From Corallococcus caeni (lineage in GTDB: Bacteria; Myxococcota; Myxococcia; Myxococcales; Myxococcaceae), in contig NZ_BTTW01000008.1 in assembly GCF_036245865.1 (NCBI RefSeq), forward strand, positions 32,396-96,395: a stretch of DNA of 64,000 nucleotides. The letters run 5' to 3'. The notes under the pieces were generated by a model, which saw only the letters and a list, made by a program, of their open reading frames with translations, made no database searches and had not been told where the DNA came from. The stretch's first letter is position 1, and every line of letters begins with the position of its first letter. Position numbers and translations under genes: made by a program. Below are positions 44,595 through 48,733 of the stretch, one piece after another.

Positions 44595-44636
44595 GGCGGG
44601 TTCGAGAGGGTGCGCGTGGAGGGAGGTCGCTTGGAA

Positions 44637-45092
44637 TCAGGGCGTGGGCTGGGCGATGACCGCCTGCTGTCCGCGCGCCTCGGCCTCGTCGCGGCGAATC
44701 CCCATGAGCGTCCACATTGCGCCGCTGAAGTCGATGCAGCCGAAGAATGTGACGATGGGATTACACAGGCCCAGCACCGTGCAGACGATGAGCACTCCCA
44801 CGATGAACGTGCGCCCCATCACCGCCCAGACGAAGAACTGGCGCATGTCCAGGATGGCCGCCTGATGAGACATGAACGACATGGACACCAGCAGTGCGCC
44901 CGCGAGCCTCATGAAGAACAGGTCCCCGTCCGCGGCCCCGGGTGAGATGCCCATCACCTTGAGGAACAGCCCGGGCACCAGCAGCAGCGTGAAGGCGAGC
45001 GGGATGGTGTAGTAGACCCAGATATACATCGAGCGTCCCGCGTGGCTCAGCGTGGACAGCTTGGGGAACACCTTCGGTGCGAAGAGCATCAT
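44637..45092 (-). CDS. Small integral membrane protein (4 predicted TM helices)
   Basis: Hydrophobic segments; trimmed to Met67. Confidence 0.45.
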   Translation of the reverse strand: MMLFAPKVFPKLSTLSHAGRSMYIWVYYTIPLAFTLLLVPGLFLKVMGISPGAADGDLFFMRLAGALLVSMSFMSHQAAILDMRQFFVWAVMGRTFIVGVLIVCTVLGLCNPIVTFFGCIDFSGAMWTLMGIRRDEAEARGQQAVIAQPTP

Positions 45093-45270
45093 GCGGACTC
45101 CAGGGGCGCGGGCTTGAGGCGGTGCCGGGAGCGTAGTGGAAGTCCCATGTTCCGCGCATCCCGGGACCCGGCATGGCTTCAGGGGACATGGAGGTCGCCT
45201 GCCCGCCCACCTCGCGTGCCCCCCTCCGCTGACGGCTGTACGCGCTACGCGCCGGGATCGAACGGCTTCA

Positions 45271-46341
45271 TCAGCGTATCCGCTCGCCACAGTACTGACA
45301 GGTGTCCGTCGTCTTCAGGTACTCGCTCTGCCCCCGTTGGTACACGGGGCAGCCCGAGTTCTGGCAGACATAGCGCACCTCGTATTTGTCCTTGTTGCAG
45401 TCCCCGCACTTCGTCTCTCCCGTCCAGGACTCGAAGCGGTTGCAGGCCTTGTTGTGGCACGCGAACTTGGGGACGGGGATGACCGGGGCGGGAGGCTTCG
45501 GCTGGCCCCATCCCAACGGCGGGCCGCCAGAGCCCATGGCTTGACTCCCGAAGCTCGAGGACTTGCCACCGAAGGACGGGCTGCCGAAGGACGGGCTGCC
45601 GAAGGACGGCGCTGACAGTCCTGGCTGACCGCGCCCCAGGTTGGCGAAGGGATCCACCCGCGGCGTCGACGACACGCCGCCCATGTTCCAGGATGGCGGC
45701 TGGGAGGGCTGGCCGACCTTCTCCGCCATGAGCTCTTCGAGCGTCTGCGCATGGACCTCCTCCCGGATCTCCGCTCGCACCCGGGTGCGGGCGGCGAAGG
45801 CGGACAGCTCCGGGCGCAGGAGGACCAGGTCGTCGGTGTATGACTGAGCCTGGCATGTCGTCACATGCACGACCTCGAACTCCGTGGCCTTGATGGCCTC
45901 CGAGAGCAGGGTCGGGTGATTGAACTCCGTGACGAACAGCGGACGCAGGCCGTAGATGGACACGCTCTCCAACGCGGAGATGGAGACCTCCGGGAAGGTC
46001 TTGTTGCTGCCGATGACCTTGGGGTAGTCCGCCAGCACGGTCGCGGCGGCCCACAGCTCCGGCGACAGATCATCGATACTTCGAGGGAAGTTCGCCTTCC
46101 GGACGGACTCGTAGTTCGCGGTCGAGATCCGCGCCAGGTCCCCTTGCCGGATGGGCGCTACGTCGGGGTACCCCTGAAGGTAGAGGACGACGTACTTGGC
46201 CACCTCGTCCGCGAGGGTCGTCTGTGGCGGGCCGTAGAAGATGATGTTCTTGCCCGCGGTGAAGCCCATCTTTTCCTTGTTCTTGAGCACCGCGCCGTGG
46301 CCGTAGAACACGCCGTGGAGCTTCCCTTCGATTCTGGGCAT
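45271..46341 (-). CDS. Hypothetical protein with SFGSPSFGSPSFGG low-complexity linker and C-terminal Cys-rich (10 Cys) double zinc-ribbon
   Basis: CHNKACNRF...CGDCNKDKYEVRYVCQNSGCPVYQ...CQYCGERI; trimmed to Met52. Confidence 0.5.
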   Translation of the reverse strand: MPRIEGKLHGVFYGHGAVLKNKEKMGFTAGKNIIFYGPPQTTLADEVAKYVVLYLQGYPDVAPIRQGDLARISTANYESVRKANFPRSIDDLSPELWAAATVLADYPKVIGSNKTFPEVSISALESVSIYGLRPLFVTEFNHPTLLSEAIKATEFEVVHVTTCQAQSYTDDLVLLRPELSAFAARTRVRAEIREEVHAQTLEELMAEKVGQPSQPPSWNMGGVSSTPRVDPFANLGRGQPGLSAPSFGSPSFGSPSFGGKSSSFGSQAMGSGGPPLGWGQPKPPAPVIPVPKFACHNKACNRFESWTGETKCGDCNKDKYEVRYVCQNSGCPVYQRGQSEYLKTTDTCQYCGERIR

Positions 46342-46573
46342 GGCCTCTGTGCCTTTCTCGAGTTCGACGAATGGGTCCGCGGCATCGTACCTCGGAGCCA
46401 CCGTCAGCCTCCCACGGGCTTCTCGCGAGCCCTGCGAGACTGGGGAACTCGGGTCGCTCGCGTCCGTGAGCGGGTTGCCCCTGTGGGGCCGCATGTGCCC
46501 CCCGTGTGCCCCTCCAGCCGGGGTTTGCTATCGCCCTGCCCACAGGTTCAAGTCCCGTACCCCTCGCTAAAAC

Positions 46574-46798
46574 GTGACCATGCGTCTCCGAGCCTGCATC
46601 GCACTTCTCCTCTTCCTCTCTGCCTGCGCGACTTCAGCGCCGAGACCAAGGGCTCGCGTGACGCGGAACCCGAGGATCGCCAATCTCCAGCGAGCGGCGA
46701 CGTTGCCGTGGACTGACAGGGGGCGGTGCGTCCGTCCACGAGGCTTCCCAGCCTTGGCCCGTGCTGGTGGAGCGCTGCTATCCGGCTCTCGACCATGA
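46574..46798 (+). CDS. Short ORF encoding a lipoprotein signal peptide followed by ~55 aa; possible 5' remnant of a lipoprotein toxin gene (frame differs from the downstream toxin ORF)
   Basis: MTMRLRACIALLLFLSAC lipobox; ends in a frame different from 46761..47498. Confidence 0.3.
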   Translation: MTMRLRACIALLLFLSACATSAPRPRARVTRNPRIANLQRAATLPWTDRGRCVRPRGFPALARAGGALLSGSRP

Positions 46799-47498
46799 CC
46801 GGATCGAGTTCCACGACACCACGGGGAGATGCACGGTCGCCTCAGCGGATGCGGCAGCCGTGGGGCTCGGGTTCTGCGTGCTGGCGGCTCCTGAGATTGC
46901 CGTGGGAGCAGTGATCGTGCTTGGCGTGGTGGTGATCGCCGTCGCCATTCAAGAAGCGCTGGATGCCTATGAACTCCGCCACGCCTACCCAGAGGAAGCA
47001 GGGAGTTCACGAGGAACGAAGGTGGCATCTCGGGATGCCGAAGCACAACGCAATCCCAGGCTGGAGCCCGAGCCAGCGGGGCAGGGCAGGCAGCCCCCAG
47101 TGCCGCCTGTGCCCGTAGACCGGACGGGCCACGCCAGTTGCGAGCCTGTTCCAGTGCCTCACGCGGGCGGAGACCCCGCGCATAACGAGTGCGCCGACGA
47201 GTTCCCTCCCAACCGTTATCCCGGGATGGACGTGCTCGCTGGCGGCGTGCGCTTCGATGCGTTGCAAGTCGGCGTGCGCGTGCTGTGGGAGATCAAGACG
47301 CATAAATTCGACACGTATAATAACTTCGTCCAGAGACAGGAGATTGCAAAGGAGTTGGAGCAAATAGAAAGGGAGCAAGAAGCAGCAGCGGCATGCGGAT
47401 TTGGTTATGCGATCGGGGTGAGCACCCAGGCGCATAGAGACGCGCTGTTGCGAGCGAATCGATTCCTCAATGTCTTCGTTACAGGATGCAAACGATGA
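46761..47498 (+). CDS. PD-(D/E)xK restriction-endonuclease-fold toxin-like protein (reminiscent of Tox-REase-5 of polymorphic toxin systems), GTG start, N-terminal TM helix
   Basis: GMDVLAGGVRFDALQVGVRVLWEIKTHKF (D...E.K); overlaps the downstream gene by 13 nt. Confidence 0.5.
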   Translation: MLVERCYPALDHDRIEFHDTTGRCTVASADAAAVGLGFCVLAAPEIAVGAVIVLGVVVIAVAIQEALDAYELRHAYPEEAGSSRGTKVASRDAEAQRNPRLEPEPAGQGRQPPVPPVPVDRTGHASCEPVPVPHAGGDPAHNECADEFPPNRYPGMDVLAGGVRFDALQVGVRVLWEIKTHKFDTYNNFVQRQEIAKELEQIEREQEAAAACGFGYAIGVSTQAHRDALLRANRFLNVFVTGCKR

Positions 47499-48250
47499 CC
47501 ATTCAGAAAAGCCTCGATCTGACAGTCTACGCGCCAGTGCTCGTGGCCAATGAGCGCCGCACACTCGCTGTCGTCCATGGCATGGAACAGGCGCTGCCTG
47601 GCTTGCGCCTGAAGTGGGAAGTCGGCGAAGGAGGGCGCCTCATCGAGTTGCCGCAACGCGACGCGTGGCTCGTTGAGGCGACATCACGTGGAAAGCTCCC
47701 GCTCCTGTGTAATGGCGACGAGAGTTACCCCGTGACGGTTTCGGGACGGGGGAGAGCGGGACGCCTCGGCCCGGGCGGTCAACCTCTGTTCGACGTCCGT
47801 GCGGAGTTGCCGCTAGACGCGGACGTTATCGCGGCATCGGGGGAGATGTTGGAGCGCGTAGCGGAGGGCGCTTGCGCGTTCTGGGGACATGCGACGCCGG
47901 ATGACGCTGCGCTAGACATCGCGCATCAGACAGCCCCCACGCTGGAAGGGCCGCCATCCCCACGTCGCGGGTTGCCTGCCCTCAAGCTCCTCGATCGGAT
48001 CCGCTCGCCTGAGATCCCCTATTACCTAGGGTGGCTGAACTACTGGTCGGCCGCTGCCGCGCAGGCCATTGGATTCCCGGACCCGGCCCGGGACGCGGAC
48101 CTGCTTTCTCGGTCGCGTCGCACGGAGTCGGGCGGGTGGGTCGTGCAGCTCACCGACGCGCCGCTCGACCTGGACAACCCCGTCCACCTGGACGCGCTCC
48201 TGCGCGCCTATGAGCGGTTCCCTGCGATTGGCGGGCGCTCGGCCCCTTGA
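47486..48250 (+). CDS. Putative cognate immunity protein (Imm52-like by context)
   Basis: Start overlaps the toxin stop; no catalytic motif; cytoplasmic. Confidence 0.45.
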   Translation: MQTMTIQKSLDLTVYAPVLVANERRTLAVVHGMEQALPGLRLKWEVGEGGRLIELPQRDAWLVEATSRGKLPLLCNGDESYPVTVSGRGRAGRLGPGGQPLFDVRAELPLDADVIAASGEMLERVAEGACAFWGHATPDDAALDIAHQTAPTLEGPPSPRRGLPALKLLDRIRSPEIPYYLGWLNYWSAAAAQAIGFPDPARDADLLSRSRRTESGGWVVQLTDAPLDLDNPVHLDALLRAYERFPAIGGRSAP

Positions 48251-48251
48251 G

Positions 48252-48650
48252 TCAAGGACCGTAGGGATACATGTTCATTTGATCCGCGATGAGCGGGCGG
48301 CAGAGCAGCAGGAGCTGTGGCTCGTCCACGAACGAGGACCTCCGCGCCTTGAGGAAGCAGGACGCGGGATCATCCGAGGGCTGGGCGTACTGGCAGAGCT
48401 GGAGCGCTTGTGGATCCTCGAGGAACGCTCGCTCCTGGACCCGCTGGAAACACTTCGCCGGGGCGTCCGAACGGGCACCCTGGCAGAGCTGGGCCGCGAT
48501 GCTCTCGCTCACTCCGCTGCCCTCGCGCGCCGCTTCGAAGCAGGAGTATTGCGGCGCGCTCTCGGGCGGCTCCTCGACTTGCCCCATGGCCGGCACCCCA
48601 AGCAACGTGGCAACCAGCCCCCAGGCTCCTCTCCATGGCCCTCGCTTCAT
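48252..48650 (-). CDS. Secreted Cys-repeat protein (three CF...LC repeats)
   Basis: Signal peptide MKRGPWRGAWGLVATLLGVPAMG; SCFEAAREG..AAQLCQ / KCFQRVQERAFLEDPQALQLCQ / SCFLKARRSSFVDEPQLLLLC. Confidence 0.5.
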   Translation of the reverse strand: MKRGPWRGAWGLVATLLGVPAMGQVEEPPESAPQYSCFEAAREGSGVSESIAAQLCQGARSDAPAKCFQRVQERAFLEDPQALQLCQYAQPSDDPASCFLKARRSSFVDEPQLLLLCRPLIADQMNMYPYGP

Positions 48651-48733
48651 CGTGCACCCCCAGGAGAAGGTGGGGGAGGCATGGCCCGCATGCGAGAGAC
48701 GGACGGAAAGACAGGCGCCGTGCCCCGGCCGCT

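Follow-up and report, generated by a model that had tools for sequence, protein, structure and literature searches.

A probable toxin-immunity cassette from a polymorphic family of lipoprotein toxins in Corallococcus caeni, with a frameshifted toxin gene and an intact immunity gene

Tox-REase-5 proteins share the published signature 'Y, FDG, EAK, Y, Q, W' (Zhang et al. 2012, PMC3482391), and those that have been studied degrade DNA (bioRxiv 10.1101/835710; PMC9635880). One of them, TseT of Pseudomonas aeruginosa, is a type VI secretion system (T6SS) effector (PMC9635880) and is paired with the immunity protein TsiT (PA3907-PA3908; PF15648/PF15579). In myxobacteria, the SitA toxins are lipoproteins with C-terminal nucleases, a downstream sitI gene and a dependence on TraAB (PMC8546572, PMC10433427). 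They form six families, each defined by an escort domain of ~375 amino acids (aa), while SitA7 has been described only by a non-modular 'predicted DNase' (PMC8546572). Lipoproteins of the inner membrane take no part in exchange, and the lipobox pattern of SitA1 has been taken as a signal for outer-membrane sorting (PMC5562445). Toxins associated with extracellular contractile injection systems (eCIS) carry instead eCIS_core (DUF4157), a marker of proteins with C-terminal toxin domains (Geller et al. 2021, PMC8213781). Here we analyse a locus that shares features with each of these systems: a disrupted lipoprotein gene ending in a DUF6310 domain, followed by a DUF5953 gene, in a stretch of 64,000 nucleotides (nt) of contig NZ_BTTW01000008.1 from Corallococcus caeni KH5-1 (Myxococcaceae, Cystobacterineae), hereafter the window.

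Our reading, held with good confidence, is that the locus is a toxin-immunity cassette from a polymorphic family of lipoprotein toxins, its toxin gene frameshifted and its immunity gene intact. Its parts are as follows (positions in the window).

46580..46732, + strand: 5' portion of the broken toxin gene, reading frame set by ATG 46580; lipoprotein signal peptide and first ~35 mature residues
46625-46627, + strand: codon of the lipid-anchor Cys16 of the signal peptide MRLRACIALLLFLSAC; the lipobox recurs in the family N-termini
46732..46733, + strand: frameshift site, one extra C (DNA comparison with eight intact relatives; codon check)
46734..47498, + strand: rest of the toxin gene, in the shifted frame (tblastn alignment of P0002)
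46761..47498, + strand: open reading frame (ORF) of 245 aa called in the databases from a GTG start (GMU01885.1 / WP_338268174.1)
46848..46952, + strand: hydrophobic segment DAAAVGLGFCVLAAPEIAVGAVIVLGVVVIAVAIQ, like a transmembrane (TM) helix, with an invariant Pro-Glu in its middle (Kyte-Doolittle)
47118..47489, + strand: DUF6310 toxin domain (Pfam) with a predicted PD-(D/E)xK fold (model)
47229 (D157) and 47256 (D166 in RFDAL), + strand: conserved Asp codons (family alignment)
47289 and 47295, + strand: codons of the E-x-K motif (E177-I-K179)
about 47320 to 47480, + strand: variable toxin tail (family comparison)
47495..48250, + strand: intact DUF5953 immunity gene, 251 aa, modelled as Imm52-like, without signal peptide; ATGA overlap with the toxin gene

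An initial annotation, made from the nucleotide sequence, had singled out the 245-aa GTG ORF and a lipobox signal lying 187 nt upstream in another reading frame, and had suggested a frameshifted or rearranged lipoprotein polymorphic toxin. Both features are present, the lipobox ORF opening at GTG 46574 or ATG 46580. The lipobox frame was conceptually joined to the toxin frame by a one-base repair, and the product was used as the query of a homologue search. The repaired protein matched ~305-aa 'DUF6310 domain-containing' lipoproteins of Corallococcus, Myxococcus, Stigmatella and Pyxidicoccus with 100% coverage and up to 86% identity. When the intact homologue P0002 was aligned with the window by tblastn, residues 1-51 fell on 46580-46732 (86% identity) and residues 47-305 on 46719-47495 in the next frame, which places the frame switch between 46719 and 46732. 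There the window reads TGC GTC C GTC CAC GAG, and eight intact relatives (L002, L004, L005, L007, L008, L011, L013 and L017) read TGC GT(C/G/T) GTC C(G/A)N GA(G/A). The suggestion of a frameshift therefore stands: the lipobox is the real N-terminus of the toxin, separated from it by a +1 shift. Reading from ATG 46580 ends at TGA 46796-46798 and yields a 72-aa product. A tblastn search of the window for a second copy of the toxin gene returned none, the gene being present once.

Since the extra C uncouples the export signal from the toxin, the locus as sequenced would at most confer immunity, and its toxin gene is probably a pseudogene whose product could not be exported. In the databases, GMU01885.1 (KH5H1_60050) matches the 245-aa product and GMU01886.1 (KH5H1_60060) the 251-aa product, each at 100% identity, and RefSeq lists the 245-aa product as an ordinary protein (WP_338268174.1; P0014 is 100% identical). 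Compared with the intact genes, this database protein reads as a frameshift remnant and not as a natural short form. An entry of 245 aa does not always mark a frameshift: P0066 (245 aa) and P0004 (305 aa), from C. exercitus, are the same gene with different start calls, and the public annotation, which lists this one intact toxin gene at both lengths, is inconsistent in this respect.

How the extra base arose was judged from the rest of the family. Among 71 N-termini drawn from 73 genome loci and L001, about 54 belong to full-length genes and 12 to truncated ones, and 5 are joined to a different C-terminal domain. Elsewhere, broken copies have lesions of other kinds. A G is lost in L059, and 5 nt are duplicated in L071. 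In Archangium lansingense, one toxin gene is split by an insertion bearing an IS66 transposase (L040:7766-9439, - strand) and another by a large serine recombinase element with Resolvase, Recombinase and Zn_ribbon_recom domains (L042:3384-5486, - strand); each insertion measures ~2.6 kb and lies near toxin residues 31-53. Because all the lesions examined differ, gene decay in this family is best described as common and not programmed. The frameshift of the window, which is not conserved in relatives, is likewise read as a recent mutation or a sequencing or assembly error. Programmed +1 ribosomal frameshifting could in principle yield the full-length lipoprotein, since the two frames overlap without a stop for ~135 nt (46662-46795) and a +1 shift anywhere there would restore the protein. 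We rejected this explanation as scarcely credible: about 54 relatives are encoded in one frame, the few other disrupted copies have different lesions, and no conserved slippery motif was seen.

That the extra C is an error deserves more weight; the annotation of the 245-aa ORF as a normal protein in RefSeq likewise counts against our reading. If the base were an artefact, the gene would be intact and functional and C. caeni would make a normal 305-aa lipoprotein toxin. The lesion is the only one; without it, the window copy has no further stop and keeps every family-invariant residue. It also falls in a short repeat (GTCC GTCC) of a draft multi-contig assembly (contig of 476,976 bp). Yet the run is only 2 bases long and therefore not a typical homopolymer error, and broken copies are common elsewhere (12 of the 71 N-termini, including the IS66 and serine-recombinase interruptions). 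We consider an intact gene possible but rather unlikely, and the individual locus is probably an ordinary pseudogene.

Both ORFs belong to Pfam families of unknown function. The 245-aa ORF matches DUF6310 (PF19829) over residues 120-243 and profile positions 2-126 of 126 (E 8.6e-54; 181.3 bits against a cut-off of 27), and ORF 47486..48250 matches the full DUF5953 profile (PF19378; E 1.2e-119; 398.7 bits against a cut-off of 25). Given these E-values and the 86% full-length identity to intact homologues, the features of the locus are far beyond chance. A PD-(D/E)xK-like segment, MD-x19-EIK, had been noticed in the toxin ORF, and its residues are indeed there (M156-D157, then 19 residues, then E177-I-K179); the Asp that aligns with 'FDG' of Tox-REase-5 is, however, D166 and not D157, which gives the spacing D-x10-ExK. 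D157 is also nearly invariant in the family. Across close and distant relatives, F-D-A and L-W-E-x-K are near-invariant. F-D-A and E-x-K, the two elements compared, lie on the expected strands of the structural model and match 'FDG' and 'EAK' of the Tox-REase-5 signature. Four conserved cysteines and a PVPVPH..HNxCAD motif distinguish DUF6310 from that signature.

The AlphaFold model of the toxin, built on 65 sequences, is confident only in the C-terminal 120 residues (predicted local distance difference test, pLDDT, above 90). Its core has the alpha-beta-beta-beta-alpha-beta order typical of PD-(D/E)xK enzymes. The best matches in the PDB were chains of TseT, and an independent Foldseek search placed the same two chains on top with probabilities of 1.00 and 0.97. 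The modelled fold is thus of the restriction-endonuclease type and nearest to the solved Tox-REase-5 member. These results suggest that DUF6310 is a nuclease domain of the PD-(D/E)xK kind, distantly related to Tox-REase-5, the kinship being visible at the level of fold and motif only. DNase activity would be predicted for it because the studied Tox-REase-5 proteins degrade DNA.

The initial annotation had also noted a 254-aa cytoplasmic protein overlapping the end of the toxin ORF. Such an ORF exists and is of cytoplasmic type, without a signal peptide, but its start lies at ATG 47495 rather than at 47486, as homologues and annotation agree; the protein has 251 aa, and the gene overlaps the toxin stop by 4 nt (ATGA), an arrangement found in 29 of 50 family pairs. 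The structure closest to the DUF5953 model was TsiT, followed by 4rho and the T6SS protein PA0821. A profile search of PDB sequences gave a weak match to 4rho (E 0.51), which is only a hint, and one DUF5953 member, P0234, bears the UniRef name 'Immunity protein 52 domain-containing protein'. DUF5953 is therefore encoded beside a toxin of apparent Tox-REase-5 type and, in the model, folds like a solved Imm52 protein. TseT and TsiT, the top matches of the two models, are the two chains of one crystal complex. That two independent models should lead to both chains of one complex is, to us, the strongest single argument for a toxin-immunity pair. DUF5953 is most likely a cytoplasmic, Imm52-like protein that would bind and neutralise its cognate toxin domain. 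In C. coralloides, DUF5953 genes listed at 171 and 222 aa looked like short forms; this was dismissed as an artefact of start calling, both being 251-aa genes.

L001:9120-9875: miscalled full-length immunity gene, C. coralloides
L001:10915-11670: miscalled full-length immunity gene, C. coralloides

Several results weigh against this kinship. The Tox-REase-5 profile (PF15648) matched neither the window protein at E<=1 nor any of 70 distant DUF6310 relatives at E<=0.01, and the Imm52 profile (PF15579) matched 0 of 55 DUF5953 members at E<=10. Searches of PDB sequences with the family profiles found neither TseT, for the toxin, nor TsiT, for DUF5953. The DUF5953 model is of moderate to low confidence (mean pLDDT 61; predicted template modelling score, pTM, 0.64), and neither DUF6310 nor DUF5953 is mentioned in the literature searched. 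NCBIfam had nothing for either window ORF, and in PADLOC the toxin and the immunity protein were without a match at E<=0.1. The pair resembles TseT-TsiT, its best PDB match for both partners, in the PD-(D/E)xK core, the F-D-(G/A) and E-x-K motifs and a cytoplasmic immunity protein encoded directly downstream, while differing in that sequence profiles detect no similarity and identity in the structural alignments is 9-16%. TseT is moreover a T6SS effector, whereas the DUF6310 protein here is a lipoprotein with a hydrophobic helix. The hidden Markov models of Tox-REase-5 and Imm52 had been named as the check on the initial annotation, and the lack of a nuclease-toxin profile hit, together with a non-toxic ORF, as grounds for abandoning it; neither profile matches even with 55 to 70 members included, so that the profile yardstick would have wrongly discarded what we consider a correct idea.

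Family-wide comparison shows how the toxin is built. An intact copy of ~305 aa begins with a type II (lipoprotein) signal peptide, followed by a ~70-aa segment with three conserved cysteines, a hydrophobic helix of ~35 aa, a Pro-rich linker and the 125-aa DUF6310 domain. Many genomes hold multiple copies; in C. coralloides (CP034669; L001:6405-13465) there are four tandem DUF6310-DUF5953 pairs, with four full-length immunity genes after start correction. N-module identity averages 76-81% over 51 pairs and barely tracks that of the immunity protein (Spearman rho about 0.16), whereas the toxin core (68% identical) and tail (49%) both do (rho about 0.65). The variable stretches are the toxin tail, residues ~247-305, and, in DUF5953, the N-terminal 170 residues. 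The window immunity gene is nearest to copies from Vitiosangium (88%) and Archangium (86%), and the N-module is nearest to Corallococcus, a pattern that cassette exchange would produce.

In four genomes, the same N-module, up to just past the hydrophobic helix, is joined to an unrelated C-terminal domain of ~125 aa. The gene downstream, of 149 aa, is also a different one, and its start again overlaps as ATGA.

L069:5821-7076: alternative C-terminal fusion, containing GVIEIVAEGENGEIRI ... HIQGQGAGTSGL
L066, L068 and L070, at 5821 to about 7080: the same fusion

Neither this domain nor the 149-aa protein matched anything in Pfam, NCBIfam, PADLOC or PDB sequences, and the two are a candidate new toxin-immunity pair. 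A search with the N-module alone returned mostly short fragments and no further C-terminal types. Conversely, DUF6310 occurs on a second, unrelated lipoprotein N-module in L038:3905-4906 (MRLRTWSALLVLLTAC; 334 aa; DUF6310 E 4.7e-52), which has a different helical N-domain with its own hydrophobic segment and lies directly upstream of a standard pair. We had at first listed the C-terminal part of this gene as an orphan cassette; it is in fact the end of this second architecture.

Beyond the lipoproteins, an exhaustive phmmer search gave 192 cluster representatives with DUF6310. In long proteins among 70 distant relatives, the domain stands at the C-terminus behind eCIS_core (16/70), Transglut_core (9/70) or the PAAR-like DUF4280 (2/70), and LysM and CBM_2 are further N-terminal partners. 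DUF6310 is in this respect a toxin domain of eCIS-associated proteins as well (PMC8213781); the window protein differs from these in having a lipoprotein signal and no eCIS_core, and its neighbours showed no eCIS genes. Because it combines a conserved N-module, a swappable C-terminus, a downstream immunity gene and a toxin domain that recurs in different delivery architectures, the family behaves, on this comparative evidence, as a polymorphic toxin system in the sense of Zhang et al. 2012.

The hydrophobic helix spans residues 30-64 of the 245-aa ORF, with a Kyte-Doolittle 19-mer mean of up to 2.85. It had been noticed before and taken to stand in place of a lipobox; the helix is real, but the intact relatives carry both. 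To ask how closely it is tied to the toxin domain, we took representatives with at least 100 residues upstream of DUF6310 from P0241-P0390 and set the threshold for a helix at a 19-mer mean hydropathy >=1.8. Whatever their N-terminal architecture, 39 of 58 distant relatives have such a 19-mer within 120 residues upstream of the domain, as against 2 of 133 control blocks taken elsewhere in the same proteins (Fisher p about 9e-24). The helix travels with the DUF6310 domain. It is unlikely to be an inner-membrane anchor in the producer for eCIS- and T6SS-type carriers, which points to a role in the target cell.

In T6SS effectors of the prePAAR / Tse6 class, N-terminal TM helices are believed to bring the toxin through the inner membrane of the target. 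The present proteins resemble this class in the physical linkage of a hydrophobic helix with a toxin predicted to act in the cytoplasm, and differ from it in that no Eag-type chaperone gene is adjacent to the window toxin. By analogy, the helix may aid insertion into, or passage across, the inner membrane of the target. One could go further and regard lipobox plus helix as an undescribed class of myxobacterial lipoprotein toxin, separate from the six SitA families, whose helix, lying just upstream of the nuclease, translocates it by itself, with no hijacking of a host protein. The helix has this position also in DUF6310 toxins linked to eCIS, PAAR-like and transglutaminase domains. We hold this reading only as a doubtful possibility; were it true, 'TM helix + DUF6310' would be a nuclease cassette that translocates itself and that several delivery systems have taken up.

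The expected topology of the helix speaks against a toxin passed between cells. After a Sec or lipoprotein signal, a strong helix should normally act as a stop-transfer sequence and leave the nuclease in the cytoplasm of the producer, a topology that fits poorly with an outer-membrane lipoprotein handed to neighbours. It keeps alive the idea of an intracellular module of the toxin-antitoxin or abortive-infection type, anchored in the membrane with its N-terminus outside and its nuclease in the producer cytoplasm, restrained by DUF5953 until released by a signal. A signal peptide followed by a single strong TM helix suits such a protein, Lys and Arg are commoner after the helix than before it, and pairs of Tox-REase-5 and Imm52 have been argued to derive from toxin-antitoxin systems (bioRxiv 10.1101/835710). 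The behaviour of the family, however, is that of interbacterial polymorphic toxins: diversified pairs stand in tandem arrays, N-modules and C-terminal domains are swapped among loci, the C-terminus co-varies with the immunity gene, and DUF6310 is also fused to eCIS and PAAR-like delivery domains. PADLOC gave no match either. We therefore judge an intracellular module improbable and retain the reading of an exported toxin.

If the toxin is exported, the question is whether it is a SitA protein, the kind of toxin to which the initial annotation had likened it, delivered by TraAB-mediated outer-membrane exchange among kin and belonging to one of the six families or to a seventh. The likeness is considerable. 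A lipobox is present in 70 of the 71 family N-termini, with A, T or V and never Lys at position +2, and 69 of the 70 lack Ala at +7, which is the SitA1 sorting pattern (PMC5562445). The C-terminus is of nuclease type, the immunity gene follows immediately, and many diversified paralogous loci occur per genome. The lipoprotein form was found only in Cystobacterineae (73 genome loci), and SitA7 is itself known only as a non-modular 'predicted DNase' (PMC8546572). Against this, ~165 aa separate Cys16 from the toxin domain, the TM-like helix and the Pro-rich linker included, rather than a ~375-aa escort domain (PMC8546572). The helix should also hold the protein in the inner membrane, whose lipoproteins stay out of the exchange (PMC5562445), sitB is absent, and the window shows no mobile-element or prophage link. 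Membership is not established, and we regard a true SitA/SitI locus as rather doubtful. Compared with the published description of the escort domain, the family, with its short and helix-built N-region, is not filed as SitA; it may nevertheless work like SitA, and could correspond to a poorly described family such as SitA7. On balance the earlier interpretation is partly supported, and in its main lines right.

The surroundings of the pair are those of the chromosome. Its neighbours include ordinary genes for an RPE65-type oxygenase, a P450, an ABM monooxygenase and an ArsR regulator, and the neighbours examined included no identified mobile-element gene. A comparison of flanking-gene synteny with the 73 related loci found the window flanks in none of them, and consensus scans for promoters and terminators gave nothing. 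GC content over 44600-48700 is 63-68%, as against 70-76% in the flanks; it is lowest, at 56%, in 47200-47599, where the variable toxin tail lies, while the window as a whole averages 70%. This low-GC stretch, which suggests an accessory islet, spans the toxin-immunity pair and three small neighbour genes to which no function is assigned. On the - strand, the divergent ORF 45271-46494 (407 aa) has a sub-threshold match to 'putative adhesin Stv' (E 1.5e-4), a Ser/Phe/Gly repeat (SAPSFGSPSFGSPSFGGKSSSFGS) and a Cys-rich, zinc-ribbon-like C-terminus, and is without a homologue in the 73 related loci. In the convergent ORF 48252-48650 (- strand, 132 aa), the N-terminus resembles a signal peptide and a Cys-x(n)-LC motif is repeated three times; this ORF had no match in Pfam, NCBIfam or PADLOC.

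Taken together, these observations are consistent with the following model. The intact toxin would be exported and lipidated and then, by the route we prefer, transferred to a neighbouring cell, where the helix would assist its entry into the cytoplasm and the nuclease would cut DNA. In sibling cells, the cognate DUF5953 protein would bind and block it. In C. caeni as sequenced, the intact immunity gene could still guard against the same toxin arriving from neighbours.

The pair is best described, on the structural models, as a polymorphic nuclease toxin of probable Tox-REase-5/Imm52 type on an unusual lipoprotein-plus-helix carrier. This gives a predicted function to two Pfam families of unknown function, which count thousands of members: that of a nuclease toxin like Tox-REase-5 for DUF6310, and that of its immunity protein, like Imm52, for DUF5953. 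For the myxobacteria, it would add to the repertoire of kin discrimination and antagonism a compact and much-expanded family of lipoprotein toxins that lies outside the published definition of SitA. That helix and toxin are coupled in delivery systems otherwise unrelated suggests that these have in common a step by which the target inner membrane is crossed, one that would bear on the toxins of outer-membrane exchange as well.

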